In this document: positions 1 through 32,000 of the stretch, piece after piece
Layout of the letters: each line of letters opens with the position of its first letter
Position numbering within the stretch: position 1 is the stretch's first letter
Assembly: GCF_009617975.1 (NCBI RefSeq)
Contig: NZ_CP040089.1
Location: 300,001 to 332,000 of the forward strand
Length of the DNA stretch: 32,000 bases
Reading direction: 5' to 3'
DNA from: Candidatus Nanohalobium constans
GTDB taxonomy: Archaea; Nanohalarchaeota; Nanosalinia; Nanosalinales; Nanosalinaceae
Notes under the pieces: generated by a model
The model's database searches: none
Told to the model about the DNA's origin: nothing
The model's input: only the letters and a program-made list of their open reading frames with translations
Made by a program: the position numbers and the translations under genes

Positions 1-1
1 G

Positions 2-397
2 TACCTTCAAAGAAATGGAGACAGCATAGACGGAAACCTCGACATGAAAGGAAACTCCATCAACAACATCGGAGAAATAACCGGAAACAACAACATAAAC
101 AACAGCATACAATTCAAATCAAACAGCATAAACTTCAATCAGGATGGAGCAGGAACAATACTTAAACTCCAAGAAACAGGGCAAATCAACGCCACAAACT
201 CCAGGATTACAAATCTGAAAGACCCAAGCAATCCACAGGACGCAGCAACACAAAGCTATGTACAAAGCTACTCCAAAACCAACGACCAATACATAGGAAA
301 CAATAAGACACACCAAGTAGGCGGCAACATCAACATGACAGACCAAAACATCACCACAAACACCCAAAACCGGATATGCACAGGCAACCAATGCTAA
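2..397 (+). CDS. 5'-truncated fibre-like secreted/surface protein (last ~131 codons lie in the window)
   Basis: Frame 2 is open from the first base (YLQRNGDSIDGNLD precedes the first Met at 44) to TAA 395-397. The protein is N/T/Q/G-rich. It contains ITNLKDPSNPQDAATQSYV, which resembles the P-x4-DA-x-T/N-K/Q-x-YV motif I associate with phage/virus tail-fibre and spike proteins. Its G-N-x-I-x-N-x-G motifs recur in the next gene. Confidence 0.5.
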   Translation, partial: YLQRNGDSIDGNLDMKGNSINNIGEITGNNNINNSIQFKSNSINFNQDGAGTILKLQETGQINATNSRITNLKDPSNPQDAATQSYVQSYSKTNDQYIGNNKTHQVGGNINMTDQNITTNTQNRICTGNQC

Positions 398-409
398 AAA
401 ACTGATACT

Positions 410-2047
410 ATGACAGACGAAATCCAAGAAATAGTAGACGACCAAGAAAAAGCAGACAAACTACAGCAAATAATAGAGAAAAAAGTCCAAAAAGAAGTAC
501 AAAAAACAGTAAAAAACCTGAAACAATCAGAAGAGTCCAAAGAAAAAACAGAAAACAGTTCAGAAGAAGTTTCAAGACGCTCATTCTTAAAGAAACTGGG
601 AGCAGGAGCAATCGGCCTAGGAGCGGCCTCACTACTACCCTCCGCATCAGCATACAAAGTCAAAAGCGGTCACGGCTTCGATGTAACATCAGACGGAACA
701 GAATACTTCGATGTCGACCCTAGCGGAAAAGTCAAAGTCAAAAACGCAGCCCTACAAATTGACACAGGACAGTCAATTGAAGACAACAACGGAACCAAAG
801 CCATAAACCTCCTAGGAAACGGCAGCGTTGAGATTCCGATCGGAAACCTCCGCCTCAACAAAGGACAGTTCATTGAAGACGGAAACGGCACAGAAAGAAT
901 AGCAATTGACCCAAGCGCAGGATTTGGCACTCATATATACAACGACGATGGTAAATTTGCATTTAGAGCAGTAGGAAACTTTGGACAAGCAATCTACGCA
1001 AGAAGCAACGAACCAGTAAGAATCCAAGACAACGAAGGAGACTTTACAGCCGTCAAATATGACACCGACACAAGTGCTGGCGTGCTGAAAACACCGAACG
1101 CCGGAATAGTAGCACAAGACAACGGAACACCATCATCAGGAGCAGGTCTAGAATTAACATACACACAAAATAACGATGGACGTGTAACAGCATACGATAG
1201 AAATAACAACAACTACATTCCACTCTACCTACGAGGCTCAAGAATTGACTTCTCTGATACCCCTGCCAACCTCCGCCTCGCCACGGGACAGAGTATCGAG
1301 GATGGTTCTGGTACTGCACGGTTGGATCTCCACAATTATGGCACTGATATTAACAGCGAAGAGGGTTCAACAGGGATTCGCTTCGCTGAGGGAGAAGATA
1401 CATTCTTTAGAGTGTTCGGATCTAAACTTGAGGTTGATGATAATAACGGTGGCTTCATTGCCCTCCAATACACCACGTCATCCAGTGCACCTGGAACGTT
1501 GGAATTGAAGAATGCCAATCTCGACGCTGGGGGGAACGATATTACGAATGCTGGTTCGGTCAGTGCAGAGGAAATAGGTGCTGAACGGCATTTAGCTGAA
1601 GGGTTTGATGGGGCTGATCCTGATTCGCGTCTCGATGCTGCTCTATCAAATGCATCTGATGGTGATGTAATCTACCTTGAAAATGCTGAATACAGTGAGG
1701 TTAGGTCAATATCAGTGAGGGTCTCTCTCATTGGAACGGGGGGAATGGGGGGGGCTGGTACTACCATTAGTGCCGATTGGACGCTTTCTGGTATAGGGTC
1801 AATATTAGAGGCAGTCTCTCTATCAGGAGGGACTATAACGATCAATGGAGTTGCATCAAGAGTCGAAAACATTTATGGGTCAACATCTCAATCAGTAACT
1901 GTGGATGCCGACTATGTTGGTATTTACAATTGTTATAATGTTGATGTAACATTCCAAAGTAATACAAATGGCGGGATGGCAGATGGTCTCCGTAATTCAA
2001 CAACACCAACTGATAATGGGTCCAACACAATTGGAGATGTATCATAG
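410..2047 (+). CDS. Tat-signal secreted repeat protein with beta-helix-like C-terminal region
   Basis: ATG 410 to TAG 2045-2047, 545 aa. A canonical twin-arginine motif, SRRSFLKKLGAGAIGLGAASLLPSASA (nt 572-652), is preceded by a 55-aa K/E/Q-rich segment. There are three copies of an (N)LRLxxGQxIEDGxGTxR-type motif. The C-terminal part (DGDVIYLENAEYSE ... LIGTGGMGGAGTTIS) looks like the start of a right-handed beta-helix / pectin-lyase-fold domain. NLDAGGNDITNAG echoes GNLDMKGNSINNIG of the upstream ORF. Confidence 0.6.
   Translation: MTDEIQEIVDDQEKADKLQQIIEKKVQKEVQKTVKNLKQSEESKEKTENSSEEVSRRSFLKKLGAGAIGLGAASLLPSASAYKVKSGHGFDVTSDGTEYFDVDPSGKVKVKNAALQIDTGQSIEDNNGTKAINLLGNGSVEIPIGNLRLNKGQFIEDGNGTERIAIDPSAGFGTHIYNDDGKFAFRAVGNFGQAIYARSNEPVRIQDNEGDFTAVKYDTDTSAGVLKTPNAGIVAQDNGTPSSGAGLELTYTQNNDGRVTAYDRNNNNYIPLYLRGSRIDFSDTPANLRLATGQSIEDGSGTARLDLHNYGTDINSEEGSTGIRFAEGEDTFFRVFGSKLEVDDNNGGFIALQYTTSSSAPGTLELKNANLDAGGNDITNAGSVSAEEIGAERHLAEGFDGADPDSRLDAALSNASDGDVIYLENAEYSEVRSISVRVSLIGTGGMGGAGTTISADWTLSGIGSILEAVSLSGGTITINGVASRVENIYGSTSQSVTVDADYVGIYNCYNVDVTFQSNTNGGMADGLRNSTTPTDNGSNTIGDVS
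752..1333 (+). repeat. Intragenic peptide repeat, three copies (nt 752-811, 845-910, 1268-1333)
   Basis: The copies read LQIDTGQSIEDNNGTKAINL, NLRLNKGQFIEDGNGTERIAID and NLRLATGQSIEDGSGTARLDLH. Copies 2 and 3 share the identical 12-mer aacctccgcctc (845-856 and 1268-1279) and then use different synonymous codons. Confidence 0.7.
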
Positions 2048-2201: not shown

Positions 2202-2516
2202 TTATCTAGTATTCTCTTGGATCCAACTTTCCAGTTTTTGTTTTGGCATTGCTCCGCTTTTCCTTGCTATTTCTTCCCCATTTTTCATTATGAGTAGTGT
2301 GGGTAGTGCTCTGACACCTAACTGTGTGCCGAGGTCGTCGTGTTCTTCCATGTCAACTTTTCCGAAGTTTACTTCTTCTATTTCTTCGGAGACTTCCTCG
2401 TATACTGGTGCTAGTTTTTTGCATGGTCCGCACCATTCTGCCCAGAAGTCGATGACCCAGTATTCTTCAGAGTTTTGAACTTCTTCCATCTTCTCGGAAT
2501 CTATTTCTGTTGGCAT
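2202..2516 (-). CDS. trxA: Thioredoxin
   Basis: 104 aa with the WCGPC active site (FWAEWCGPCKKLAP) and typical thioredoxin length. A TATA-like tttttcttaa (reverse complement of 2540-2549) lies 24-33 nt upstream of the ATG. Confidence 0.9.
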   Translation of the reverse strand: MPTEIDSEKMEEVQNSEEYWVIDFWAEWCGPCKKLAPVYEEVSEEIEEVNFGKVDMEEHDDLGTQLGVRALPTLLIMKNGEEIARKSGAMPKQKLESWIQENTR

Positions 2517-2572
2517 ATGCTTTGATCAGTTGGACAGGCTTAAGAAAAACTTGGTGAAGAAAAGGTAAGCCC

Positions 2573-2704
2573 TTATTCTGCATCAATTTTGTAGTCTCTC
2601 ATCTTGAATTCTTCTCTTTCCTTCATTAACTGTTCTTTTACTTCTCCTATTTCTGGGTAGGAGCTGGAGAAGTCGGATAAATCTTGATTTTCTGATTCTG
2701 TCAT
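2573..2704 (-). CDS. Candidate 43-aa acidic micro-ORF translationally coupled to vapC
   Basis: It falls below the ORF-track length cutoff. Hand translation gives MTESENQDLSDFSSSYPEIGEVKEQLMKEREEFKMRDYKIDAE, ending at TAA (reverse complement of 2573-2575). Its ATG (2702-2704) overlaps the vapC TGA (2701-2703) as ATGA. I recognise no homology. Confidence 0.25.
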   Translation of the reverse strand: MTESENQDLSDFSSSYPEIGEVKEQLMKEREEFKMRDYKIDAE

Positions 2705-3078
2705 AGTTTGTAGTTAATGGTGTCTATTTCGAGTTTTTGGAAGTCTGTGTCTCGTGTAACCAGTTTTCTACCCGCGTTTTTAGCTTGCGCTGCAATCAGG
2801 TAGTCTATTTCTCCGATTTTCTCTCCTTTTCTGGAGAGTTTTCTGTACATTTCTGCAGCCACTTCCCCGTCTTCTGAGGTTAAATCAAAGATCTTATTCT
2901 GCTCAAGTTCTTTTCTGTTGAAATCAGAAATTTTAGATAACTCATAGAGTACTGTGCTTCCAGTAGTTATGGAGCTGGCTTTTTCCATTATTTCTACTGC
3001 TTTTTCTTCGCCTTTGAAGAGGTCTATCAGGAAGCTAGTGTCCGCGAAGTAATGTTTCTCTGTCATCGTCTTCTTCAC
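2701..3078 (-). CDS. vapC: PIN-domain ribonuclease toxin VapC
   Basis: 125 aa with an N-terminal FADTSFLIDL acidic motif and a C-terminal LVTRDTDF motif, both typical of PIN domains. It lies directly downstream of, and overlapping, a small antitoxin gene. An alternative start is the Met at 3066. Confidence 0.85.
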   Translation of the reverse strand: MKKTMTEKHYFADTSFLIDLFKGEEKAVEIMEKASSITTGSTVLYELSKISDFNRKELEQNKIFDLTSEDGEVAAEMYRKLSRKGEKIGEIDYLIAAQAKNAGRKLVTRDTDFQKLEIDTINYKL

Positions 3079-3265
3079 TTCTTTCTCTTTCTTCTTTCAG
3101 TTCTTCAAAACTTGTTTCTATTCCTTTTCCTACAATGTTCTCGAACTTCTGGTTCTTGTCTTCTGTAAGCTCCAGTATCACATCTGAGAAGCTCTTATTG
3201 TCATCTTTCAGAGCCTTCAGTCTGGAATATGCTTCATCTTTTACGGATATAGTCCTGGAACCCAT
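3035..3265 (-). CDS. vapB: VapB-type antitoxin (COG1753 / PF02697-like)
   Basis: 76 aa. The N-terminus RTISVKDEAYSRLKALKDDNKSFSDVILEL matches the archaeal putative-antitoxin family usually paired with PIN toxins. It overlaps vapC by 32-44 nt. The palindrome caatattg (3283-3290) and a TATA-like attgataaatc lie 20-33 nt upstream. Confidence 0.8.
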   Translation of the reverse strand: MGSRTISVKDEAYSRLKALKDDNKSFSDVILELTEDKNQKFENIVGKGIETSFEELKEERERSEEDDDRETLLRGH

Positions 3266-3337
3266 GTTCTGTGTATGTGTACCAATATTGATAAATCTTT
3301 TCTATGGAAAAAGAAGAAGTTGAAAGAAAGACATGTA

Positions 3338-4165
3338 TCACTCGTCTTCGTTGTTCATGTAGACGGTTCTGATTGGGTATGGGATGTCGATCTCGTTTTC
3401 GTCGTACTTCTCTTTGACGCCTTGTGTTACTTCGGAGGCTGCTTTAACCATGTTGGCTTTGGATGGCTTGGTCCATCCACGAAGTTTCAAGTTGACTGAG
3501 GATCCTCCTAGTTCGTTGACCAGTACTTGTGGTTCTGGTGTTTCTTCCACCATTTCGGCTTCTTCTAGGCTTTCCATTGCTAGCTCTGTTGCTGAGTCGA
3601 TATCGTCGTCGTATCCTACTCCGACTATTACTTCAAACCGTCTCTGGTCGTATGCTGTGTTGTTGATGACTGTTCCATTGTAGAGCTGGGAGTTGGGTAC
3701 GATTACTTTTCTGCCGTCGTATGTTTTGATGTCTGTAGCTCTTATTTTGATGTCTTGGACTGTCCCTTCTTCTCCCGAGACCTTGATTTGGTCTCCTACC
3801 TTGAATGGTTGTCCGATAAGTATCAGGATGCCGGAGATAAAGTTGGCGATCATATCTTTCAATGCGAATGAAAGACCTAATCCTATTAGGCCAACTGCTC
3901 CGCCAATAGAGGCTGCTGGAAGCCCGAAGACACCGAGGAATACTACAAATGTTAGTGGGTAGATTATGTAGGCTGTGACTTTTTGGGCAGCTATTATTGC
4001 GTGTTTGTCGCCTCCTCTACGGTTTATTCCCTGCTCAACTAGTTTGTTGGATATCTTGTTTGCGAACCATCCGCCTATCAGAACTAGTGCACCGGTTAGA
4101 AGGGTTGTCATCTGGATTTCGATTCCGAGGTTTGCAAGCTGGCTCTCCAGAATAGAGATTGTCAT
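3338..4165 (-). CDS. mscS: Small-conductance mechanosensitive channel (MscS family)
   Basis: 275 aa with N-terminal TM helices. The MscS beta-domain signature is present: GQPFKVGDQIKVSGEEGTVQDIKIRATDIKTYDGRKVIVPNSQL. Confidence 0.9.
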   Translation of the reverse strand: MTISILESQLANLGIEIQMTTLLTGALVLIGGWFANKISNKLVEQGINRRGGDKHAIIAAQKVTAYIIYPLTFVVFLGVFGLPAASIGGAVGLIGLGLSFALKDMIANFISGILILIGQPFKVGDQIKVSGEEGTVQDIKIRATDIKTYDGRKVIVPNSQLYNGTVINNTAYDQRRFEVIVGVGYDDDIDSATELAMESLEEAEMVEETPEPQVLVNELGGSSVNLKLRGWTKPSKANMVKAASEVTQGVKEKYDENEIDIPYPIRTVYMNNEDE

Positions 4166-4186
4166 GTCTCAAGTTTTTCCACTGCT

Positions 4187-4196
4187 TCTTAAATCA
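4187..4196. promoter_or_regulatory. Single TATA-like element centred in the 54-nt divergent mscS / E1 spacer
   Basis: ttcttaaatc lies about 24-30 nt from the mscS ATG (4165) and about 25-33 nt from the ATG at 4220. This spacing fits leaderless archaeal promoters in both directions. Confidence 0.4.
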
Positions 4197-4219
4197 ACTT
4201 CCCACTAAAACCCAACCAG

Positions 4220-5152
4220 ATGTACTCCCGATTCACCACGCTTCAAAACCACTCAGAAGAAGACCAGGAAAGACTGGAAAACTCCACAGCAGCAATAATA
4301 GGACTTGGAGCGACTGGGTCAGCTATAGCAGAAAACCTGGCTCGACACGGCGTCAATCTTATAATAATCGATAGAGACTATTTGGAGGAAAAAGATGCCT
4401 ACTCATCGAGCCTTTACACTCCGGAGCAGTGTGAAAAAGCTTTGCCTAAGGCCAAAGCAGCCGAAGATTATCTGAAACAGTTTACTGGGGTGGAGGCATA
4501 TTCTGAAAGCTTTAAGCCAGATAACACTGATCTGATTGAGGAAGCAGACATCATACTGGATGGAACGGATAATCTTGAGACTCGGCAGGTGATAAATGAT
4601 TACAGCAAAAAACAAGGAATACCTTGGATTTATACTGCGGCTATAGCTGAGAAAGCTTACTCGATGCCTATAATCGACAAATGCTTCAACTGTATGGTGC
4701 AGAAACCTCAGAAAGTAGCTACATGTGAGACAGATGGGGTCATGAGGGAGGTAGCTCGGGTAGCTGCTGCTAAATCAGTTTATAAGGCGGTTAAAATGCT
4801 TACCGGTTCTTCTGTTGATGAAAGGCTTGAACTTGTGGATAAAAACCGTTTCTTGAAAGTTGAAGATTCTGGGTGTGAAGTATGTGAGTCAGAAGTTTTT
4901 CCTCATCTAGATCAAACTGCCCGGGTATCTAAGCTGTGTGGACGAGGCAAGTATCAATTTGAAAAGAATATTTCGGATGAAAACATTGCTCAAGCAGTAA
5001 AAGCTGGGGAAAAACTAGCTGAGAACGATTATCTTGTCCGTATAGGCTATGAGGGGCGTGAAATCACTTTTTTTCGGTCTGGCAGGGTGATTGTCGAGGC
5101 TAGGGATGAGGGGCATGCCGAGTCTTTAATCTCTGAGGTAGCTGGAATTTAA
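4220..5152 (+). CDS. ThiF/MoeB/UbaA-family E1-like adenylyltransferase with an extra C-terminal domain
   Basis: The Rossmann motif IIGLGATGSAIAENLARHG is present. Two CxxC pairs (CFNC, CEVC) match the MoeB/ThiF zinc site, and ATCETDGV matches the catalytic-Cys region. About 88 extra residues follow the second CxxC. Confidence 0.8.
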   Translation: MYSRFTTLQNHSEEDQERLENSTAAIIGLGATGSAIAENLARHGVNLIIIDRDYLEEKDAYSSSLYTPEQCEKALPKAKAAEDYLKQFTGVEAYSESFKPDNTDLIEEADIILDGTDNLETRQVINDYSKKQGIPWIYTAAIAEKAYSMPIIDKCFNCMVQKPQKVATCETDGVMREVARVAAAKSVYKAVKMLTGSSVDERLELVDKNRFLKVEDSGCEVCESEVFPHLDQTARVSKLCGRGKYQFEKNISDENIAQAVKAGEKLAENDYLVRIGYEGREITFFRSGRVIVEARDEGHAESLISEVAGI

Positions 5153-5154: not shown

Positions 5155-5179
5155 CAATCCGGTCTACATTTTTGTATCT

Positions 5180-6004
5180 GTGGGATTAGAGACTGACTAT
5201 ATCGAGTACGGGGTACAGCTATCTCTGGCTGTTCTAGGCATATCAGCAAGTTACCTAATAGATTTCTCAACTCCTTCAACACTTCTAACACTGTTGTTCC
5301 TGCCTGTGCTCTACGGATACACAGCCTACATTTCCAGAGAAAGCTTCAACAAAGCCACGCTAACCACATTAATAACACCTATATTTGGGGTAGTTGGCGG
5401 TATAACAGCCTTACTGATCATACCTTACAGTATAGGGAACATTCTTGTCTCAATGCTCTCCGGAGGCGACCAGTTCAAAGACTTCTACGGTTCAACATCA
5501 ATACCGCTGCTTATAACAGGGCTTATAATAGGGACATCAATTTTTGCGTATGGAGCAGCAAACCCAGAGTTTAAACAGGATAAAGTTGACTCAGCAGCCA
5601 CGGAAATATCAAAAATCACGGAAGAAACCATAGAACGAACAGGCATGCTAGAAAACCAGAAAAACACACAGCTACAATCAATAAACCGTACGGCAAAAGC
5701 AGCCACAGAACTAACAATCCAAAAAGTCTACAACAAAACCAATCCCCAAAGAGAGACAGCAGAATCCCTAGAAGAAGCAAGGACCGAAGTACCAGAAATA
5801 ATCTACCAACAAACCCAGAAACAGTTCAACCAGAAACAAGTAGATCTCTCAAACCGGATCAAACCAATATTCAAAGACATGTTCGGAGGTCAAAAGTTCT
5901 TCATAATAATACCGCTAATAACAGGGCTTACATACAGCCTACAACCCTTAATAGGGATTCTAACAGGTATTTTCAGCAAAATATTCCTGAAATTCGGAGA
6001 GTAG
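5180..6004 (+). CDS. Hypothetical multi-pass membrane protein with a central Q/N/K/E-rich loop
   Basis: 274 aa with a GTG start. Several hydrophobic helices flank a hydrophilic segment of about 90 aa (QKNTQLQSINRTAKAATELTIQK...). I recognise no family. Confidence 0.5.
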   Translation: MGLETDYIEYGVQLSLAVLGISASYLIDFSTPSTLLTLLFLPVLYGYTAYISRESFNKATLTTLITPIFGVVGGITALLIIPYSIGNILVSMLSGGDQFKDFYGSTSIPLLITGLIIGTSIFAYGAANPEFKQDKVDSAATEISKITEETIERTGMLENQKNTQLQSINRTAKAATELTIQKVYNKTNPQRETAESLEEARTEVPEIIYQQTQKQFNQKQVDLSNRIKPIFKDMFGGQKFFIIIPLITGLTYSLQPLIGILTGIFSKIFLKFGE

Positions 6005-6041
6005 GTCACTAACTTAAAGTTCACAGATTACCTAAGGTAAC

Positions 6042-8735: not shown

Positions 8736-8762
8736 AAACCTCTGAGTCCTCATTGTTGTTTA

Positions 8763-12659: not shown

Positions 12660-12704
12660 ATAACACTTAAACTTAAACACGGGCGTCGCCAACTTCGTAG
12701 TATA

Positions 12705-13633: not shown

Positions 13634-13635
13634 TT

Positions 13636-14112: not shown

Positions 14113-14151
14113 ACCTCTACATCAAATAATTTATGAGGAACATTTATGGAC

Positions 14152-14898: not shown

Positions 14899-14907
14899 GG
14901 GAGACAC

Positions 14908-16650: not shown

Positions 16651-16670
16651 ATTCCCGAACCAAAAAGAGT

Positions 16671-18161: not shown

Positions 18162-18185
18162 CCTGTTCTTCCCAGAATAGATTAA

Positions 18186-19681: not shown

Positions 19682-19715
19682 ATCAACATTTTTTGTGATA
19701 GGGTCTTAAACAACT

Positions 19716-20957: not shown

Positions 20958-20980
20958 AGAAAAACAGTTGTTAGTAAACT

Positions 20981-20990
20981 CTTTTTATTC
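20981..20990 (-). promoter_or_regulatory. TATA-like box upstream of prf1
   Basis: The reverse complement, gaataaaaag, lies 24-33 nt upstream of the prf1 ATG (20955-20957). Confidence 0.4.
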
Positions 20991-21024
20991 ATGCACGAAA
21001 TAAGATGGAGAAAGAAAGTAGAGT

Positions 21025-23616: not shown

Positions 23617-23862
23617 TATTGTTTAAACCTCATAGAAACAGCTTCTCGAGTAGCTTTAAATCCATTTTTCAGGCAGCGAAAACCAGCCGAACAGAGATTT
23701 AAGCTAGAGTTGGGACTGTTTAGAAGATTTTGATAATCCTGAATCTCATTGAGATTCAAGGTCGCAGAAGCCATCTGGCTTCGAGTTCGTCTTGTGCCGT
23801 ACAAAACGGTCACCTGTAGTTGATAGGGTCATAGTAATCAGTTCTGATTTCTCAGCCGATTC

Positions 23863-23870
23863 TTTTATTA
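23863..23870 (+). promoter_or_regulatory. TATA-like box upstream of the metallophosphoesterase gene
   Basis: ttttatta lies 25-32 nt upstream of ATG 23895. Confidence 0.4.
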
Positions 23871-23894
23871 GCTTCGTAAGTAGAGCGTAGAAGC

Positions 23895-24701: not shown

Positions 24702-25477
24702 AAGTCGCCTAGGCTCCTGTTACCAGGATACTGCATACCGTCTTCAGCGAATGTTACCTTGGCATCTACTTGTTCTTTCAGCCATTCTTCCTGTTTTTCT
24801 AGGTCTGAGTTGAGGAATTTTTGTCCAAAGTGTGTTATTATGATGTTTTCTACTTCTGTCTGTTCTACTATTTTCGGTACTTCGTCTAGTGAGGTGTGTC
24901 CTTTGATTCCTTCGTTTCTTGGGCGTGAGCAGTAAATTACTAGTGTGTCGCATCCTTTGTAGAGTTCTGTGAGTTCGTCTGAGTACTGTGTGTCTGTCCA
25001 GAAACCTATCTTCTTTTCCTCTGTCTCCAGTGTGAATCCCTGTGTTTTTGGGTCGCCGTGGAACATTTCCTGGCTCTCGATCTTCAAATCTTTGAATTCG
25101 TGTTTTGAATCTTCCTCAAGGACTTTTACTTCCATGCAGAGGTCTTTATGGTAGTTGCTGACCGCTTTCTCCACTTCTCCGTAGCCATGGATAACTGATT
25201 CAGAACCGAAGACTGCGCCTGGCTTATCCGATGCCTGAGTCATCATCCCAATCAACGGCTCGACATCATTCGAATGATCGGGATGAGCATGAGAAACCAA
25301 GACAGCCTCAGTATCCAGAGGATTATCCAACTCCTCATGACAATGATACAGGGCACCGGGACCGGGATCTACATGAATCTGAGTATCACCTGTTTGAACC
25401 ACTATGCCACCAGTCTGCCTATTCTGATAACCAGTAACATATCTTCCTCCGCCAGTCCCCAAGAACTTGAGTTTCAT
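24698..25477 (-). CDS. Metallo-beta-lactamase-fold hydrolase
   Basis: The MBL metal-binding motif is SHAHPDHSND, the N-terminus is KFLGTGGG, and His/Asp positions follow downstream. Confidence 0.8.
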   Translation of the reverse strand: MKLKFLGTGGGRYVTGYQNRQTGGIVVQTGDTQIHVDPGPGALYHCHEELDNPLDTEAVLVSHAHPDHSNDVEPLIGMMTQASDKPGAVFGSESVIHGYGEVEKAVSNYHKDLCMEVKVLEEDSKHEFKDLKIESQEMFHGDPKTQGFTLETEEKKIGFWTDTQYSDELTELYKGCDTLVIYCSRPRNEGIKGHTSLDEVPKIVEQTEVENIIITHFGQKFLNSDLEKQEEWLKEQVDAKVTFAEDGMQYPGNRSLGDF

Positions 25478-25551
25478 ATGTTTACTATTTTTCTGATGAT
25501 TCTTTTGTAAGAATCAATTCAATAATATTGTTTGTCGTCAGTAGGTAAAAT

Positions 25552-25872: not shown

Positions 25873-25920
25873 ATAGAAAAACCAACAAAACAAGTATTGT
25901 GTTACTCCATAACAACAACA

Positions 25921-25927
25921 TTTATAA
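25921..25927 (+). promoter_or_regulatory. Consensus-like archaeal TATA box (TTTATAA)
   Basis: tttataa lies 24-30 nt upstream of ATG 25951, which predicts a leaderless transcript starting at or near that ATG. Confidence 0.5.
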
Positions 25928-25950
25928 GTGTCGCAACCCAAGTATAACAT

Positions 25951-26070
25951 ATGATCTCAATGAGCCAAAACGAATACAGTTCAATCGCGGAAAAGTCCCT
26001 TGAGGAGCTAAGGGAAGAAACTCCTAACACTCAAACCCAGTTAAAAACCAGAGAAATCGAGACCAGGTGA
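25951..26070 (+). CDS. Candidate 39-aa leaderless micro-ORF
   Basis: Hand translation gives MISMSQNEYSSIAEKSLEELREETPNTQTQLKTREIETR, ending at TGA 26068-26070. It falls below the ORF-track cutoff. Supporting points are the TATA box at -27 and a stop codon embedded in the Shine-Dalgarno site of the next ORF. Confidence 0.3.
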   Translation: MISMSQNEYSSIAEKSLEELREETPNTQTQLKTREIETR

Positions 26071-26076
26071 TTGGCT

Positions 26077-26382
26077 GTGAAGGATATTAAGCCAAAGTCT
26101 TCGGTATCCTCAGAATATAGTATTGATGGGGATTCGTATTCTATAGAAAGAGTAACTTATGCAGTAGGTGGTGAAGAGATTGATAACACTAGAATTAGGA
26201 AGGATGGAGAAATTGTAGCAAGTAAAACAGTTGCGGAGTCTGGTCTTGAGGAAGTTACTAGCAATTATGAAGATATGGAGTCATACATTCATGAAAATGC
26301 AGAGAAAAAAACTTCCGAATCTTGGGGCTCTACTGATCGAAGACTTGAAGGTGAGTCACCTGTTGGAGGTGCTTTGCAATGA
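26077..26382 (+). CDS. Hypothetical acidic protein (orphan)
   Basis: The ORF track starts it at TTG 26071. I prefer GTG 26077 because AGGTGAT (26065-26071) is a 7-nt match to the archaeal Shine-Dalgarno consensus about 6 nt upstream. I recognise no family. Confidence 0.4.
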   Translation: MKDIKPKSSVSSEYSIDGDSYSIERVTYAVGGEEIDNTRIRKDGEIVASKTVAESGLEEVTSNYEDMESYIHENAEKKTSESWGSTDRRLEGESPVGGALQ

Positions 26383-26780
26383 AGTCAGATCTAGCTGATG
26401 ATTTGCGTGGGGTTGGCAATTATTCTGATGATGCAGTTGAGGCAGATGTAGCTAGGACTGATATAGGGAAAATTATCCAGACTATGAATGACTATGATAT
26501 AGTAGAGGACCCGGAAAGTGAGAGATATATTCTTAGTGATGGTACACACCAGTATTCAGTGGAAATTCAGTGGACAGATATGGGAGATGAAGAGGAAGTA
26601 GCAGTCTATATCCAAGAGTCACACACAGGATTTCATAATGAGGCACTAGAACAGGGAAGTACTATGAACACAGGAGAAATCTTACAGCCATCTGAGGATG
26701 GTGCTACATTCGGTGATCCATCTGAAGCACTTCGTCAAGGAGCAAATAGAGCACCAAGTAAGAGAGAAAGAGGGTTTTAA
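26379..26780 (+). CDS. Hypothetical acidic protein (orphan)
   Basis: 133 aa. The ATG overlaps the upstream stop as ATGA (26379-26382). A GGAGGTG Shine-Dalgarno site at 26365-26371 lies 7 nt upstream. I recognise no family. Confidence 0.45.
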   Translation: MKSDLADDLRGVGNYSDDAVEADVARTDIGKIIQTMNDYDIVEDPESERYILSDGTHQYSVEIQWTDMGDEEEVAVYIQESHTGFHNEALEQGSTMNTGEILQPSEDGATFGDPSEALRQGANRAPSKRERGF

Positions 26781-28885
26781 TTCACTTCACTCCCTATATC
26801 TATCTCTTCTTCTGTTGTCAGCATTGTGACTTTTCCTTCTTCGTTTTCTGCTGCCAGCATCATGCACTCACTTTTCTCTCCACGCAGCTCGGTGGGTTCC
26901 AGGTTGGCTAGGACGATCACATTTTTGCCTTTTAGTTCTTCTTTGGTGTAGTGGTTTTTGAGTCCGGCGCAGGTCTGTAGCGTTGCTTTGCCTACATTTA
27001 CCTGTACTTTGTAGAGTTTGTCTGCGTTTGGATGTTCTTCGACTTCTTCTACTTGTCCTGTTCTGATGTCCATGTCCATGAAGTCGTCGAAGCTGACTGT
27101 GTCCTCGTTAAAAACCTGTTCTTCCGAGTTCTCGTCTTCTTGTTCCATGTTTTCGTCCTCTAGTTGTTCTTGGTGTTGTGATGTGTCGATTTTCTCGAAT
27201 AGGATCTCTCTTTCTCCGAGTTCGTGTCCTGGTTCCAGCGCTCCTACTGTACCCTCTAATTCGTTCTTTTCTTCGTTTACATCGATTTCTGTGTTGAGTT
27301 GGTCTGCGATGCTTTTGCTGGATTCGGGTATGAAGGGGTAAATTGCTTTGCTTAGGGCGTTGATTATTTGTACTGCGACATAGATTGTTTCTTCTCTTCT
27401 CTCTTCGTGGTTCCATGGCTGTTCTTTGCTGAGGTATTTGTCTCCGTGCCTGGCGATTTCTAGGGCGGTGTCTAGTGCTTCCTTCAACTCTTTATCCTCA
27501 AATTCTTTATCGTATTCTTCTAGCAGGTTTTCTGTTTTCTCCAGTGCTTTTTCATCCTTTTCTTCGAGTTCTGGTTCTGGTACTTTGTTGTCGAACCAGT
27601 CTTCTGCTAGACTCAAAGTCCTGTTGACGAAGTTGCCGACCGTGTTGTTTAGCACTCCGTTGATTTCATGTTCGAAGTCTTCCCAGTCGAAGTTTGTGTC
27701 TTCCGAGGTTGGAAGTCTTCTGGCTAGGTAGAATCTCCAGTAGTCGGCTCTGTAGTACTCCGCAGCTTCGTTGATGAAAATTCCTCTATTCCGGGAGGTG
27801 GAGAATGCTCCGTCGTTCCACATCAGGTACTGCTGAATGAACTCGTAATCTGGTAAACCATAGCTCATTTCCTCGTTTGAGGCACCGAGCAGCATTGTAG
27901 GGAAGATCACTGCGTGGAAGATGGCGTTGTCCTTGCCGATTGAATGGATGATCTCTGACTTTTCATTCCAGTAGTCTCTCCATTCGCCTGAATCGTTGAA
28001 GAGCTCTCTTGTAAATCCTATGTAACCTATCGGTGCGTCAAACCAGACATAAAGAACCTTGTCTTCGTACTTGTCTTCATCCAGCTTTTCCACGTTCAGA
28101 TTTTCTTCTTCGATCCTCTGGTTTACTCTTTCTACTGGTATCTGGAATCCCCAGTCTTGGTCTCTTGTAATGGACCGGTCCTCGGCTTCTTCCAGGTCGT
28201 GTAGTATCTGTTTCTCCATGCTTTCCGGAACCGGTTTCTCCTGTTTGATCCATTCTTTCAAGTCTTCTTTGTATTCGGTGAGGTCTAGGAATAGGTGGTC
28301 AGTCTCTCTGAATTCTATATCATTGTTTCCACAGATCTGGCATTCCGGGTTCTCTATTTCTTTCGGTTCTATCAGTTTTCCACATTCATCGCATTGGTCT
28401 CCTCTTGCTAGTCCTCCGCAGTGTGGACAGTCTCCTTCGATGTATCTGTCTGGTAAGAATCTCTCATCGTTATGGCAGTAGGCCATGTTCTGTGTTTTTT
28501 CGTTGATCAATCCTTTGCAGTATATCTCTTCGAACATGTCGTGGGTCTGTTTCTTATTGTGTTCGCTGTGAGTATCTGAGAAGATTGAGAAATCTACATT
28601 CAGGCTTTCGTATGCTTCCTTGACTTTTCTGGTCTGTTCATCTTTAATATTTCTTGGATTGACTCCTCTTTCCAGTGCTTCTAGTTCGAGCGGTGTTCCG
28701 TGTACGTCTCCGCCGCAGATGAACTCGTTTCGTACTCCTTTAATATCTAGGAATCTGTGGTATAGTTCTGCTGGTAGTACGCTTCCTGCCATGTTTCCTA
28801 GGTGTGGCATTCCTTGTACATATGGGAGTGCTGAGGTAACCGTAACCTTTCTGTTGGAGTTAGCTGATGTAATTTTCGAGTTCAC
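26777..28885 (-). CDS. metG: Methionine--tRNA ligase with a C-terminal Trbp111/EMAPII-like tRNA-binding domain
   Basis: 702 aa with a GTG start. SALPYVQGMPHLGNMAGSVLPAELYHRF is the eukaryote/archaea-type HIGH region. The Zn knuckles are CPHCGG ... CDECG and CQICG. The C-terminal RTGQVEEVEEHPNADKLYKVQVNVG ... SECMMLAAE is the OB-fold tRNA-binding domain. Confidence 0.9.
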   Translation of the reverse strand: MNSKITSANSNRKVTVTSALPYVQGMPHLGNMAGSVLPAELYHRFLDIKGVRNEFICGGDVHGTPLELEALERGVNPRNIKDEQTRKVKEAYESLNVDFSIFSDTHSEHNKKQTHDMFEEIYCKGLINEKTQNMAYCHNDERFLPDRYIEGDCPHCGGLARGDQCDECGKLIEPKEIENPECQICGNNDIEFRETDHLFLDLTEYKEDLKEWIKQEKPVPESMEKQILHDLEEAEDRSITRDQDWGFQIPVERVNQRIEEENLNVEKLDEDKYEDKVLYVWFDAPIGYIGFTRELFNDSGEWRDYWNEKSEIIHSIGKDNAIFHAVIFPTMLLGASNEEMSYGLPDYEFIQQYLMWNDGAFSTSRNRGIFINEAAEYYRADYWRFYLARRLPTSEDTNFDWEDFEHEINGVLNNTVGNFVNRTLSLAEDWFDNKVPEPELEEKDEKALEKTENLLEEYDKEFEDKELKEALDTALEIARHGDKYLSKEQPWNHEERREETIYVAVQIINALSKAIYPFIPESSKSIADQLNTEIDVNEEKNELEGTVGALEPGHELGEREILFEKIDTSQHQEQLEDENMEQEDENSEEQVFNEDTVSFDDFMDMDIRTGQVEEVEEHPNADKLYKVQVNVGKATLQTCAGLKNHYTKEELKGKNVIVLANLEPTELRGEKSECMMLAAENEEGKVTMLTTEEEIDIGSEVN

Positions 28886-28910
28886 CTGTCCAATTTTCTG
28901 GTTGAGAATC

Positions 28911-28920
28911 TTTTAAATTT
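28911..28920 (-). promoter_or_regulatory. TATA-like box upstream of metG
   Basis: The reverse complement, aaatttaaaa, lies 26-35 nt upstream of the GTG start (28883-28885). Confidence 0.4.
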
Positions 28921-28960
28921 CAGATAGTGTTCGGATCGGCAGGATAAAAGAAGTTTTTCT

Positions 28961-29740
28961 CTAAATTAGTTTTCTTTTGAGTCTGTTCAGATTTGATAGG
29001 CCGAAGTCTGGCTGCTTTTTTTCTTCTGCTTTGGCTATTTTTTGCCTTGTGATGTCGCCGCTCATGACTGCTCCGGTTTTCATGCCTAGTTCGTTGCCTG
29101 TTTTGATGTCTGCTAGTCTGTCGCCGATGAATAGTGAACCGGTTGGAACATAGGTGAAGTAGTTTCTGAATTCGTCTCTGAACTCTTCGCTAGGCTTGCC
29201 GACCAGTCTTACATTGTCTGCGTAGGTTCGGAGTGCTTTGTTGAATGGTTCTTGGTGTGGTTGCTTGCTGTTAGTCTTTCTGAATACTTTTTCTGTGCTA
29301 CAGATGTAGAGTTCTCCGTCTTCTTGAAGTATTTTCATGGCTTTTCTGAGTTTTTCGTAGTTGAACTGTCTGTCAAGTCCTGCTACTACTATATCTGCGT
29401 TCTGTGAGATTTCTATGTCTTCCTCTTCTAGTTCGTCGATTAATCCTTTTTCGCCTATTGCGTAAACCTGTTTAACATTTTCATCTGCCAGTACCTGGGC
29501 TGCTACATATCCTGAGGTAATTATGTCGTCTTTTTCGACAGGGATATTCATCGAGGAGAGTTTCTGGGCGTAGCCTTTTCTTGAGAGTATGTTGTTATCG
29601 GTGTGGAATCTAATCTTTTTATCTTTTTCTCTGAGTGTGTCGATAAGGTCTTCTGCTCCGATTATTGTTTTGTCCCAGTTCCAGATGGTCTTGTCTAGGT
29701 CGAAGAAGTATGTATCTTTTTTCTTTATTTCGGGCTTCAT
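28961..29740 (-). CDS. HAD-superfamily hydrolase, subfamily IIA (NagD/PNPase-like)
   Basis: Motif I is FFDLDKT (DxDxT). Motif IV is FIGDRLADIKTGNELGMKTGAVMSG. A cap domain lies between them. Confidence 0.8.
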   Translation of the reverse strand: MKPEIKKKDTYFFDLDKTIWNWDKTIIGAEDLIDTLREKDKKIRFHTDNNILSRKGYAQKLSSMNIPVEKDDIITSGYVAAQVLADENVKQVYAIGEKGLIDELEEEDIEISQNADIVVAGLDRQFNYEKLRKAMKILQEDGELYICSTEKVFRKTNSKQPHQEPFNKALRTYADNVRLVGKPSEEFRDEFRNYFTYVPTGSLFIGDRLADIKTGNELGMKTGAVMSGDITRQKIAKAEEKKQPDFGLSNLNRLKRKLI

Positions 29741-29761
29741 GTTTTGTTATTGTTTGATTAA

Positions 29762-29772
29762 TTTATTATAAA
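29762..29772 (-). promoter_or_regulatory. TATA-like box for the HAD gene
   Basis: The reverse complement of tttattataaa lies 22-32 nt upstream of ATG 29738-29740. Confidence 0.35.
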
Positions 29773-29804
29773 TCGGAAGCTAGGTTTTCCTGGGTGTCTG
29801 TTCA

Positions 29805-29813
29805 TTTTTTATT
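29805..29813 (+). promoter_or_regulatory. TATA-like box for the vWA/CARDB gene
   Basis: ttttttatt lies 25-33 nt upstream of ATG 29838. Confidence 0.4.
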
Positions 29814-29837
29814 GTGTCGTTACTAATTGTGGTTTGG

Positions 29838-32000
29838 ATGAGTCGGAGATTGTGTTTTTTTGTGTTGGTTTTTCTGATGTTTTCGGGGTTTGGTCTGTCT
29901 CAGGCTTCTGCTGATAATTTGGATGCTAGTGTTGAGACGTCTGGTGATTTTGTTTTGGGTAGGTCGGTGACTTCAGTGTTCAGTTATGATATTGATGATC
30001 CCTATGAGCCGGTTGATACTTCTTTGGTTATTGATGAGTCCGGAAGTATGGATGGTGTGATGGATGATGCTAAAGATGCTGCAAAGACGTATGTGGAGAA
30101 TACGAATACTGGTCAGGGGGATGAGAATGCGGTGGTGGAGTTTGAGGATACTGCTAGTACTATTCAGTCGCTTACTTCTAGTAAGCAGGATGCTAAGGAT
30201 GAGATTGATTCAATTGACGCTGGTGGTGGAACAGAATTGCCTGCGGGTGTAAGTGAGGGACATGATTCTCTGGAATCTGGTACGAATGCTGAGCAGGTTA
30301 TGATTGTTTTGGCTGATGGGGATGGGAATGATCCTGGTTATGAGGCGGATCAGGCTAGGGCTGATGGAATCAAGATACATGGTATACTTTATGGATCGGA
30401 TGCTAGTACCAGTGAATTTGAAAGCTTGACGGGTTCTGATTGTACGACTGACTCTAGTGAGAATGGTGATGGTGATAATTGCTGGTATGCTGAGCCAGGT
30501 ACGATTAATTCTGTTTATACTTCTATAAGAGAGACTACTCAGACTGAAACAGATACTGATATTAGGATGAGGCTTAGGGATTTCGCATACGAGAGCCATG
30601 GGAATTATGAGTCGAGAAATGAGTTATCGGGGGAGAATCAGGAGTTTGTCCGTAGTTATGACAATGTAGATTCTGGTAGTTATAAGGAAGAGTTCAAGTG
30701 GCGACCAACTGTCAAAGGAACTGAAACTGAGATGGTTACAGGAGACTCATTAATCGAGGTTACATCTGAAGGAGAGACAAATGAGTTTATGTTTCCGGGT
30801 CCTAAGCTAGAGGATGTAGATTACGTGGATTTCAATATTTCAGGTTATTCTGTTCGGAGAACTAGTACAGGTGTTGGTGTGGAAGTTTCAGTTACAAATG
30901 AAGGTACGGAACCATCTTACAAGAATGAAGTACGATTAGAGGATTCTTCAGGGAATTATAAGGTTAAAGAGATTCCGGTTCTTGATCCTGGTGAATCTAC
31001 TGAAATCTCTTATTCCTTTTCAAATTCTCATAAGATATTTGACAATCCTGAAGAATTAAAGCTGCATGTCGATCCTCCAGGAGATTTAAGCGGTCAACCT
31101 GAAGGTTTCTGGGATGGAACTGGTCATGGTGAGGGCGATACTTTGGAGCCAAATGAAGATAATAATGATGAACCTATTGGTTTTCCCCCTATTTTAGACT
31201 CTGTTTCTCCTGACAATGTGGATTGGAATGATGTTTATGCTCCTAAGTTTACTGTTAGGCATCATGCCCCTGATAGGGTTTCTGGAGTGTACAATTTTAC
31301 CAATAAGACAGTCTTGGAAGATGAGGATGAAGAGCTGTCGACAGTCCCAAACCCAGATTCAAGTAATGAGGCGGTTTTGAAGACCGATCAGTATCGTGCA
31401 GATCCTGCTGAGAGGTATTATAATTTTACTGTTAATTTGACTGATGGCGATAATACCTATTCTGTTTTCGATGCAAAGAGTTATTATCCTGTAAATCCTC
31501 CTCCCAAGGCTTCAGCTGTTAATCCGGAAAACGGAGGATTTATCTCTGAATTCCCTGTAACCTTGGCTTCTGAGGTCAATGATGCGAACTCTGAGTACCA
31601 TGGTAGAACTCTTGACGTATCAATTTACGATCATAATGATCAAAAGCTTACTTCCGCTAAAGTGATGCCTAGCGATGTAATTAACTATGACTGGGATGTC
31701 CCAGATGCTGTTGAGAAAGAATATGAATGGACTGTAGAAGTAGAAGATAAGTGGGATGCAATAAACAGGACGTTCTCTTTCACCAAGATCATAGGCAGTT
31801 CATACAGAAGCAAGCTTTCAGCTGACTTAAACTATACTTCGATAATTATGGAGGCGGGTTCGAACGAGTATGCGACTTTGAGCATTGAAAATGAGGTAAA
31901 TAACAGGAAAAATATCACAATTAATCTGAACGGGGTTGAAGCCGAATTTGTTGATGGGGAGGATTCTAAAACTATACCTAACTTCCCTAAGCAGTCTGTG
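29838..32000 (+). CDS. Large secreted surface protein with vWA and CARDB-like domains (3' end outside the window)
   Basis: It is absent from the ORF track because no stop is reached. I translated frame 3 by hand from ATG 29838 to base 32000 and saw no stop. The signal peptide is MSRRLCFFVLVFLMFSGFGLSQASA. The vWA MIDAS is LVIDESGSMDG ... DAGGGTEL ... MIVLADGDGND. The CARDB-like segment is DFNISGYSVRRTSTGVGVEVSVTNEGTEPSYKNEVRLEDSSGNYKVKEIPVLDPGESTEISYSF. The protein is very acidic. Confidence 0.75.
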   Translation, partial: MSRRLCFFVLVFLMFSGFGLSQASADNLDASVETSGDFVLGRSVTSVFSYDIDDPYEPVDTSLVIDESGSMDGVMDDAKDAAKTYVENTNTGQGDENAVVEFEDTASTIQSLTSSKQDAKDEIDSIDAGGGTELPAGVSEGHDSLESGTNAEQVMIVLADGDGNDPGYEADQARADGIKIHGILYGSDASTSEFESLTGSDCTTDSSENGDGDNCWYAEPGTINSVYTSIRETTQTETDTDIRMRLRDFAYESHGNYESRNELSGENQEFVRSYDNVDSGSYKEEFKWRPTVKGTETEMVTGDSLIEVTSEGETNEFMFPGPKLEDVDYVDFNISGYSVRRTSTGVGVEVSVTNEGTEPSYKNEVRLEDSSGNYKVKEIPVLDPGESTEISYSFSNSHKIFDNPEELKLHVDPPGDLSGQPEGFWDGTGHGEGDTLEPNEDNNDEPIGFPPILDSVSPDNVDWNDVYAPKFTVRHHAPDRVSGVYNFTNKTVLEDEDEELSTVPNPDSSNEAVLKTDQYRADPAERYYNFTVNLTDGDNTYSVFDAKSYYPVNPPPKASAVNPENGGFISEFPVTLASEVNDANSEYHGRTLDVSIYDHNDQKLTSAKVMPSDVINYDWDVPDAVEKEYEWTVEVEDKWDAINRTFSFTKIIGSSYRSKLSADLNYTSIIMEAGSNEYATLSIENEVNNRKNITINLNGVEAEFVDGEDSKTIPNFPKQSV

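Follow-up and report, generated by a model that had tools for sequence, protein, structure and literature searches.

We analyzed a 32-kb stretch of the closed genome of Candidatus Nanohalobium constans, a cultivated DPANN nanohaloarchaeon, and refer to the whole of this stretch as the window. It has a GC content of 0.44 and carries 29 genes, every reading frame of which is intact; the last, a partial VWA/CARDB gene, extends beyond the right end. The genes include those for an Lhr-type helicase (6042-8735, + strand), BatA/VWA proteins, an NYN protein, TatD, S-adenosylmethionine (SAM) synthetase, dCTP deaminase, a DUF368/VCA0040-like protein, aRF1, ValRS, a metallophosphoesterase, an MBL-fold protein, MetRS, and a HAD hydrolase. 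The Lhr protein matches, at 100% identity, the one recorded at NCBI for Ca. Nanohalobium constans, whose closed genome measures 973,463 bp, and an identical assembly of this genome was obtained from two cultures (PMC7443923). Our subject is the composition of silent sites along this locus, which alternates at intervals of 0.2 to 3 kb, and often within an intact gene, between two near mirror-image states, one rich in A and C (A/C) and the other rich in G and T (G/T).

We followed this composition as KM3, defined as (G+T-A-C)/N at third codon positions and read on the + strand. Over windows of 80 codons, KM3 ranged from -0.78 (418-655) to +0.72 (29021-29258). Optimal segmentation of the 10,080 third positions gave 23 segments with KM3 between -0.67 and +0.82, and a two-state hidden Markov model of the same positions was better than a one-state model by about 540 log-likelihood units. 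Variation among 60-codon windows was 9.2 times the binomial expectation, and at fourfold-degenerate sites alone the standard deviation was 0.37, against 0.13 expected. We also found that the G-versus-C and T-versus-A skews at third positions co-varied (r=-0.72, p=1e-28), which means that G exceeds C and T exceeds A together on one strand. The distribution of KM3 was flat, not bimodal. About 17 kb of the window is G/T on the + strand, versus about 5 kb that is A/C. The polarity of the skew alters about every 1.4 kb, and 14 of the 22 change-points lie inside genes.

We then permuted synonymous codons within each gene, which preserves the protein and the codon counts of the gene. With this shuffling, an in-gene switch was significant at p<=0.0003 in the genes at 410-2047 (split at 1280), 6042-8735 (6753), 8763-10436 (9912), 24698-25477 (25225), and 29838-31997 (30684). 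Five more genes gave p<0.002, and 17 of the 29 genes gave p<0.05. We concluded that the mosaic is independent of protein composition. A first-pass annotation made from the letters of the window had described G-versus-C and T-versus-A skews that change together and cut through intact genes. This description held: its eight hand counts of 60-nucleotide lines were all exact on recount, joint switching is present at third positions and at fourfold sites, and the five strongest in-gene switches lie within intact genes. It had staked the mosaic on third-position sign changes beyond what amino acid composition explains, and such changes are present. Its list of seven A/C islands survived in part. Five are A/C at third positions, namely, 1-1280 (-0.67), 4170-4400 (-0.37), 5160-6710 (-0.38), 10100-14650 (-0.34), and 25210-25500 (-0.48), whereas 19340-21300 (0.00) and 22100-22800 (+0.05) are neutral there and owe their apparent A/C character to the first and second codon positions of - strand genes.

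We fetched 29 loci (L-numbers) and homologous proteins (P-numbers, P0002 being the Lhr protein of L003). L009 is a Bacteroidetes contig; the other loci belong to relatives, and the longer of them mostly show synteny with the window. The segments of the window are listed below, with coordinates and KM3 from the optimal segmentation and split p values from the synonymous shuffling.

46-1285: A/C, -0.67; gene 44-397 (+) and the first 291 codons of the Tat-signal surface protein 410-2047 (+); split at 1280, p<=0.0003
1288-2232: weak G/T, +0.14; 3' part of 410-2047 (+) and the convergent spacer
2235-4130: G/T, +0.52; thioredoxin (-), PIN (-), and MscS (-), sense A/C
4133-4411: A/C, -0.36; divergent spacer and the first ~65 codons of ThiF-like 4220-5152 (+); split at 4415, p=0.0007; common to L003, L024, and L028
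4414-5233: G/T, +0.25; remainder of the ThiF-like gene
5236-6755: A/C, -0.40; membrane protein 5180-6004 (+) and the first ~238 codons of Lhr 6042-8735 (+); split at 6753, p<=0.0003
6758-8180: weak G/T, +0.15; middle of Lhr
8183-8807: G/T, +0.52; 3' end of Lhr; common to L003 (+0.40)
8810-10202: near-neutral, -0.07; 5' and middle parts of BatA-like 8763-10436 (+)
10205-12392: A/C, -0.56; 3' end of the BatA-like gene and most of the VWA protein 10437-12659 (+)
12395-14977: near-neutral overall, -0.09; Q/N/P-rich protein (+), TM107 (-), NYN (-), and TatD (-); split in TatD at 14610, p=0.0007, with a weak + strand A/C patch at 14200-14677 (-0.28)
14980-16608: G/T, +0.48; SAM synthetase (-) and dCTP deaminase (-), sense A/C
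16611-18350: weak G/T, +0.18; secreted protein 16671-18161 (+) and the start of DUF368
18353-19319: G/T, +0.53; DUF368/VCA0040-like (+), sense G/T; reaches 200 nucleotides into the convergent LOR (-)
19322-21430: neutral, +0.01; LOR (-), aRF1 (-), and the 3' end of ValRS
21433-22435: G/T, +0.38; part of ValRS (-), sense A/C
22438-23110: neutral, -0.08; inside ValRS, codons ~280-400 sense G/T; also in L006, absent in L007
23113-25214: G/T, +0.42; 5' part of ValRS (-), metallophosphoesterase (+), and 3' part of MBL-fold (-); spans one divergent and one convergent junction
25217-25439: A/C, -0.63; 5' ~75 codons of MBL-fold 24698-25477 (-), sense G/T here; split at 25225, p<=0.0003; common to L006
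25442-26888: weak, +0.12; three small acidic + strand genes and the 3' end of MetRS
26891-29852: G/T, +0.51; MetRS (-) and HAD hydrolase (-), sense A/C
29855-30362: strongest G/T, +0.82; 5' part of the VWA/CARDB gene from ~29838 (+), sense G/T
30365-31997: G/T, +0.34; remainder of the partial VWA gene; split at 30684, p<=0.0003

At 1280, codons shift sharply from GAC/GAA/AAC/GGA to GAT/GAG/AAT/GGT, and the switch coincides with the start of the second repeat of the surface protein. This protein (410-2047) has a Tat signal and two internal repeats of about 90 amino acids (residues 146-233 and 286-378); its C-terminal domain is distinct and has a homologue to itself, P0140. Homologues of the protein reach at most 52% identity, with partial coverage only. 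The adjacent gene, 44-397, gave a subthreshold match to the N-terminal domain of the phage T7 tail fibre (E=1.3e-4). Structured RNA genes were considered as the cause of the G-rich right end and rejected: the window has no Rfam matches, and the region is the VWA gene that leaves the window. No tRNA genes were found in the window or in 20 loci, and no Orc1/Cdc6 gene is among the genes of the window.

The two states are close to reverse complements of one another. Fourfold sites in the sense A/C state hold A.52, C.23, G.11, and T.13, and this composition is the same in + strand genes of A/C blocks (n=768) and - strand genes of G/T blocks (n=1001). The sense G/T state holds A.18, C.09, G.22, and T.51 (n=621); the extreme blocks were chosen by amplitude, and the independent match between them is only the division of the skew between A/T and G/C. 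The near-mirror relation holds family by family, in Ser, Thr, Ala, Gly, Val, and Pro.

We compared + strand KM3 over 50 codons on either side of gene junctions in 18 nanohaloarchaeal loci, using open reading frames (ORFs) filtered by purine content at codon position 1. KM3 was correlated across convergent junctions (r=0.48, n=51, p=4e-4) and across co-directional junctions (r=0.46 to 0.50); across divergent junctions the correlation was not significant (r=0.22, n=42). The + strand representation also segmented more parsimoniously than the sense representation, by 15 to 30 penalized log-likelihood units. The corresponding comparison of hidden Markov models was ambiguous, as two states favored sense by 14 units and three states favored the + strand by 20. 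We concluded that the skew is a property of the DNA strand at short range. At the junctions of the window itself (60 codons per side), the sign was the same at seven, with |KM3|>=0.27 on both sides at only four (19118, 23616, 24701, and 29740); there was a clear flip at 4165, and at 13313 and 26780 the sign differed with a small value on at least one side. Shared opposite-strand stops make four of the window's five convergent pairs overlap by 4 nucleotides (13310-13313, 19115-19118, 24698-24701, and 26777-26780, reading CTAA, CTAG, TTAG, and TTAA, respectively), and because the stop codons overlap, the 3' ends of their transcripts must overlap too.

A second component follows the sense strand. 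Sense A/C sequence outweighs sense G/T sequence by 2.7:1; about 28% of strongly skewed coding sequence carries the mirror (sense G/T) polarity, and 9 to 10 kb of + strand genes are sense G/T. Windows of the same orientation were positively correlated at all distances. In contrast, windows of opposite orientation were positively correlated on the + strand only below 600 nucleotides, and r was -0.1 to -0.3 at 3 to 6 kb. Genes on both strands are sense A/C in L007 and L008, and ValRS is sense A/C in the window, L006, and L007. We concluded that a sense-linked component, which moves the sense strand towards A/C, overlies the strand component. Across the right 15 kb of the window, the + strand is G/T almost throughout, in genes of either orientation. 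We rejected a model with one constant strand offset for the whole window and a gene-specific sense effect, since by our reasoning no offset fits both the sense-G/T and the strongly A/C + strand genes.

These results qualify what the first-pass annotation had said about strands. Its statement that the + strand state crosses 8 of the 10 convergent or divergent junctions was too strong for the window alone, although the effect is significant when pooled over the 18 related loci. Its view of the skew as a strand property and not a sense-strand dialect holds at short range, alongside the sense-linked component. Its statement that the mosaic mostly ignores gene orientation has to be given up, given the 2.7:1 bias and the negative correlation between opposite-orientation windows more than 3 kb apart.

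We also found the asymmetry outside silent sites. In A/C blocks, where amino acids have been replaced, the window has A/C and L001 has G/T at codon positions 1 and 2 in 310 cases, versus 163 in the reverse direction (p=1e-11), and the shift is similar against L005, L002, and L019. The shift was not significant in G/T blocks, whose residues are fewer and better conserved. Weakly constrained proteins in A/C blocks are rich in N, Q, T, P, and K. One protein of 202 amino acids (12705-13313, +) is of low complexity and rich in Q, N, P, and S, has no Pfam match, and is 54% identical to its counterpart in L003; its composition fits A/C-rich codons, and mutation pressure shaping this protein is possible. 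We counted bases in eight noncoding stretches. The sign clearly agrees with that of the adjoining block in four, namely, 1-43 (-0.26), 2048-2201 (+0.34; G43 C13 T60 A38), 4166-4219 (-0.26), and 29741-30200 (+0.38). It agrees weakly in three, 2517-2700 (+0.16), 3079-3337 (+0.10), and 23617-23894 (+0.06), and the eighth, 25873-26070 (-0.29), which may contain a small ORF, belongs to a weak block. We concluded that the asymmetry acts on amino acid-changing positions and on spacers too.

The last of these spacers is A rich and 198 nucleotides long. It contains a 39-codon ORF, MISMSQNEYSSIAEKSLEELREETPNTQTQLKTREIETR, at 25950-26070 (+), which runs right up to the TTG start codon of gene 26071-26382; this ORF may encode an unannotated small protein, or it may be the true N-terminal region of the 26071-26382 locus.

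Predicted RNA folding differs between the two states. Per 120 nucleotides, the A/C-rich strand folds at -17 kcal/mol, versus -26 kcal/mol for neutral sequence, and is thus much less structured; G/T-rich sense RNA folds as strongly as neutral sequence (-27 versus -26 kcal/mol). Selection against RNA structure with arbitrary polarity was considered as a cause and rejected, since only the A/C polarity unfolds mRNA and the distribution of KM3 is not bimodal. The extreme skew also strips stop codons from antisense frames, and spurious ORFs of 100 to 140 amino acids arise opposite real genes: on the - strand at 119-445, 812-1117, 11585-11887, 12031-12366, and 30210-30599 and on the + strand at 27018-27341, 27426-27731, and 28059-28481. 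Purine content at codon position 1 is at least 0.62 in real genes, with one exception, and at most 0.62, mostly at most 0.56, in the spurious ORFs.

Among the relatives, the strength of the mosaic varied widely. In the closest lineages, overdispersion over 60-codon windows was 10.0 in L024, 5.3 in L003, and 3.9 in L006, next to 9.2 in the window, and it reached 4.6 in L007 and 4.4 in L014 and L016, which are among the more distant relatives. Nevertheless, L001 and L005, whose Lhr proteins are about 85% identical to that of the window, were nearly flat, as were several others (1.2 to 2.5; L001, 1.3; L018, 1.2). Across orthologous 40-codon windows, the sense pattern correlated with that of the window at r=0.61 in L006, 0.49 in L003, 0.33 in L005, and 0.23 in L001; in more distant relatives r ranged from -0.20 to +0.41 with no trend. 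Patches occur at the same codons in L006, in the MBL-fold gene (codons 25-75) and in ValRS (codons ~280-360); both are absent from L007, where these genes are uniformly sense A/C. The most extreme block in the data is the MscS orthologue of L024 (2131-2970) and L028 (1376-2215), with KM3 of +0.84 to +0.92 on the + strand of the locus and more than 92% of third positions A or C on the sense strand; in this lineage, Lhr is 93 to 94% identical to that of the window. Taken across these loci, the patterns indicate that the mosaic is heritable, with a resemblance that fades with divergence, and that the strong amplitude is lineage specific, especially in the Nanohalobium constans lineage. Polarizing the substitutions on the branch of the window by parsimony (L003, L001, and L005) was abandoned, since synonymous sites are saturated and only 20, 7, and 45 changes were inferred.

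The same loci differ from the window in gene content. The archaeal SAM synthetase gene (14908-16035, -, between TatD and dCTP deaminase in the window) is missing in L003 (10705-10720) and L002 (19263-19537) and is broken into two fragments in L001 (19043-20068), a sign that this housekeeping gene varies between relatives, by presence/absence or as a pseudogene. Gene content is also variable between thioredoxin and MscS, where the window has a PIN-domain gene (2517-3337), L001 has Lactamase_B (6380-7246), L005 has CutA1 (6084-6386), and L002 has nothing.

The Lhr gene carries a different kind of signal. L003 is closer to the window than L001 is only in Lhr and TM107 and is elsewhere roughly equidistant with it. 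The identities of successive Lhr blocks to the window are 0.946/0.922/0.901 for P0002 and 0.842/0.922/0.835 for P0003; P0002 reaches 0.95 to 0.97 in residues 61-240 and about 0.9 elsewhere. Rate-normalized divergence changes at nucleotides 6768-6801 (P0002) and 8172-8286 (P0003 and P0005). These change-points adjoin the skew change-points at 6755 and 8180 (delta log-likelihood, 3.8 to 13), although skew-driven amino acid change could mimic such a signal. The identities indicate that diverged nanohaloarchaeal lineages have undergone homologous recombination with one another, with breakpoints in the Lhr gene that may coincide with skew boundaries. However, the block at 6042-6760 is A/C in the window (-0.40) and G/T in L003 (up to +0.47), yet it is the block closest to L003 in protein (95 to 97%). 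Being closest to L003 while in the opposite state, this block would have changed state without import from a divergent lineage. We searched for recent recombinant tracts by blastn against the 29 fetched loci and found none above 85% nucleotide identity. Synonymous identity to relatives is 0.32 to 0.68 throughout, near saturation, with no jumps that would mark recent import; the closest available relative is about 72 to 77% identical in DNA.

We compared the mosaic with the strand asymmetries that have been described. In replication asymmetry, the leading strand has G>C and T>A, for example, in Borrelia burgdorferi and in reduced endosymbionts. The window resembles this in the joint G>C and T>A at silent sites, including fourfold sites, in the shift of amino acid usage, and in its two mirror states. 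However, replication asymmetry switches only at the origin or terminus, over hundreds of kilobases, whereas the window holds 23 segments in 32 kb, has no polarity that is constant along a replichore, and switches about every 1.4 kb and partly by gene orientation. Transcription-associated mutational asymmetry shares with the window the scale of transcription units, a sense-linked component, and a possible spillover at overlapping convergent 3' ends. In bacteria and mammals it drives the sense strand towards G/T at a far smaller amplitude, whereas the window is mostly sense A/C (A.52 and C.23 in the majority state). A codon dialect would be confined to synonymous sites and would be a sense property of whole genes, and we found neither. 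Since each of these falls short in at least one defining feature, we did not assign the mosaic to replication-type, transcription-type, or codon-usage-type asymmetry.

Other systems offer partial likenesses. The A/C state, rich in A and C and poor in G at fourfold sites, and its complement resemble the H/L asymmetry of vertebrate mitochondria, which is attributed to deamination of the strand that spends time single stranded; mitochondria, however, have one polarity per small genome and a positional gradient, whereas the window has alternating blocks. Kataegis on resected or break-induced single-stranded DNA (ssDNA) shares kilobase tracts, coordination on one strand, and a switch of polarity between neighbors, but each cluster comes from one somatic event and comprises only a few C>T changes, unlike these blocks, which are evolutionary equilibria at most silent sites and are shared by related species. 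As in haloarchaeal interspecies recombination mosaics, adjacent Lhr segments have different nearest relatives. Such mosaics are recognized by divergence jumps, whereas the window is near saturation throughout, its block boundaries show no such jumps, and the link to skew blocks is only suggestive. Haloferax volcanii, likewise a halophilic archaeon, has C>G on the sense strand at silent and noncoding sites, opposite to bacteria; as far as the consulted part of that report goes, its skew is chromosome scale and a correlate of gene-strand bias, with no kilobase mosaic, in-gene switches, or A>>T reported, all of which the window has (PMC12999951). In the literature searched, we found nothing comparable to a kilobase-scale, in-gene, near-mirror mosaic with lineage-specific amplitude. 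We concluded that the biases described for replication, transcription, or codon usage do not fully explain it.

We tentatively favor a substitution pressure that acts in situ and unequally on the two strands, with a polarity that follows the direction in which each segment is mainly transcribed. A local mutational asymmetry of some kind was among the options raised by the first-pass annotation, and it is the one that the evidence leaves standing, with recombination still a serious rival. According to this model, the RNA-like strand would be driven towards A/C in this clade, and most well-expressed genes would for that reason be sense A/C. The mirror state would arise where convergent read-through or an antisense or internal promoter dominates a segment. 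As such promoters turn over, a segment would flip in one lineage while the protein stayed unchanged, and homologous recombination between lineages would probably add some of the sharp in-gene boundaries. A persistent local polarity would be needed, because strand-coordinated events of random polarity should not be able to reach KM3 of 0.6 to 0.9. We prefer transcription as its source because fork direction cannot alternate at the kilobase scale and because import and codon selection each have difficulties. The sense-linked component and the patches share the same composition, four of the five convergent pairs have overlapping stops, and RNA of the A/C strand is less structured, all of which are consistent with the transcription model. 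There is also a precedent for the polarity in Haloferax volcanii, where GC skews at third positions and in noncoding DNA oppose gene-strand bias, with sense C>G (PMC12999951).

Several points weigh against this model. Every antisense or read-through transcript that it invokes is hypothetical. Its polarity, with the RNA-like strand going to A/C, is the reverse of the classical asymmetry, in which the nontemplate strand gains G and T, and to our knowledge a T/A ratio of about 3 to 4 at fourfold sites far exceeds transcription-associated asymmetry known elsewhere. Three of the five divergent junctions of the window lack a + strand reversal (23616, 29740, and, more weakly, 25477), which a promoter-centered model does not predict. 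The model predicts a sawtooth profile, with sharp onset at promoters and slow decay; when sawtooths at promoters or break sites, with abrupt falls and slower recoveries, were tested, the skewness of increments was not significant in the window (p=0.12 to 0.24) and had the opposite sign in L003 and L016, and the profile was rejected. By our reading, only about 8 of the 22 change-points lie within 70 nucleotides of a gene boundary. The orientation-independent G/T right half (15 kb) also looks like replication-type skew, and the similar size of the two extreme states partly follows from the choice of blocks by amplitude.

With regard to promoters, a TTTAAA/TTTTAT-like element lies about 28 to 33 nucleotides 5' of most start codons (e.g., at 4187, 5147, 6012, and 28918), which suggests TATA boxes at the distance typical of leaderless transcripts. 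Bidirectional firing from palindromic TTTAAA is conceivable. A scan for antisense promoters was dropped, since the apparent TATA element is TTTAAA-like and palindromic and its orientation therefore cannot be read.

The main rival is a recombination mosaic, which we regard as unlikely but take seriously. The resident state of the window would be G/T on the + strand, on top of a strong replication-type skew, and A/C and neutral blocks would have been imported from relatives that replicate the locus in the opposite direction or are weakly skewed. Two near mirror-image states like leading and lagging strands, the excess of + strand G/T (about 17 kb, against about 5 kb of A/C), and the right 15 kb, which is G/T regardless of gene orientation, all fit such a history. 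Blocks of 0.2 to 3 kb with in-gene boundaries fit conversion tracts, and in the modular surface protein the second repeat begins where the composition switches, at 1280. Exchange between lineages is itself visible, in that L003 is closer only in Lhr and TM107 and P0003 has 0.92 identity in the middle of Lhr and 0.84 at its ends, and the Lhr divergence change-points (6768-6801 and 8172-8286) lie near those of the skew (6755 and 8180). However, no fetched locus of about 20 kb has the uniform, orientation-independent, full-amplitude state that a donor would need, and the negative correlation of opposite-orientation windows at 3 to 6 kb is unlike an effect of fork direction. The lack of shared tracts above 85% nucleotide identity and of jumps in synonymous identity, together with the block at 6042-6760, closest to L003 in protein but opposite in state, likewise counts against import. 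Patches shared with L006 keep a high amplitude in the window (the MBL-fold 5' patch, -0.63, sense +0.63) despite near-saturation, where import followed by decay predicts otherwise, and donors of opposite state, only about 70 to 75% identical in DNA, would be a poor substrate for homologous recombination. For the earlier idea of tracts from oppositely replicated relatives, the evidence is divided: recombination inside Lhr stood up, while the search for tracts and the state of the closest Lhr block count against import as the source of the mosaic.

Three other accounts fit less well. Damage or synthesis errors on ssDNA during recombination or repair, which we judge improbable, would involve recurrent resection or one-strand synthesis at fixed sites about 1 kb in extent, with strand-coordinated C>T and A>G changes accumulating in a lineage without repair of deaminated bases or mismatches. 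An often single-stranded strand would be expected to show T>>A and G>C, as the vertebrate mitochondrial H strand does, and the short-range independence of orientation, the kilobase scale, the lineage-specific amplitude, and a heritability that fades with divergence would all fit. Events of random polarity would nevertheless amount to a random walk, and KM3 of 0.6 to 0.9 over 0.5 to 3 kb would need a persistent polarity from fixed hot spots, which are hypothetical; a sharp-drop, slow-rise profile around fixed break sites was not significant, and the 2.7:1 sense bias would be left unexplained. Ordinary heterogeneity of codon usage we consider quite improbable. In this case, A/C-ending codons would be optimal through Watson-Crick pairing with the G34/U34 tRNAs of a reduced set and would be selected in highly expressed genes, with G/T segments as background mutation bias. 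This would account for the 2.7:1 dominance of sense A/C, for the sense A/C state of the housekeeping genes for MetRS, ValRS (in three lineages), SAM synthetase, and dCTP deaminase, for the extreme MscS of L024 (sense, -0.9), typical of selected codon usage, and for the much less structured A/C-rich mRNA. It would not account for the sharp in-gene switches (p<=0.0003) or for the positive + strand correlation over convergent junctions, where a sense dialect predicts zero or below. Amino acid-changing positions (310 versus 163) and several spacers follow the skew, the G/T state is near the complement of the A/C state and not neutral while syntenic relatives are neutral, and aRF1 is neutral. An assembly artefact, either a chimeric consensus of two cocultured populations or misjoins, is hardly credible. 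The first-pass annotation had raised a chimeric consensus of metagenome-assembled genomes, which is contradicted by the identical assemblies from two cultures (PMC7443923), by the exact match of the Lhr protein to the NCBI record of Ca. Nanohalobium constans, by the intact ORFs, and by the independently assembled metagenome relatives L003, L006, L024, and L028, which have mosaics with shared in-gene patches.

Beyond the transcription model, it is possible, though we hold it doubtful, that the window represents an undescribed genome organization, in which kilobase-scale polarity domains of extreme strand-asymmetric substitution are set locally and flip inside genes between sister lineages while the protein stays unchanged. 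The candidate local setters of polarity would be net transcription, including antisense transcription, fixed nick or break sites, and selection for unpaired RNA or ssDNA in a cytoplasm of multimolar salt. Under this reading, silent-site skew would preserve a fossil record of the local process.

Strand asymmetry is used to locate replication origins and informs mutational mechanisms and models of codon usage, and it is assumed to act at the scale of replichores or genes. This case stands apart through near-mirror flips about every kilobase, even in conserved genes, in the closed genome of a cultivated DPANN archaeon, at an amplitude that rivals mitochondrial genomes. There are practical consequences: spurious stop-free antisense ORFs mislead gene callers, and the skew violates the stationarity assumed in phylogenetics and dN/dS and pushes the amino acid composition of weakly constrained proteins. 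If polarity reflects net transcription or repair and recombination, a skew map would give a sequence-only readout of these processes in organisms that are difficult to study experimentally. A mutational regime particular to halophilic archaea would then also come to light.

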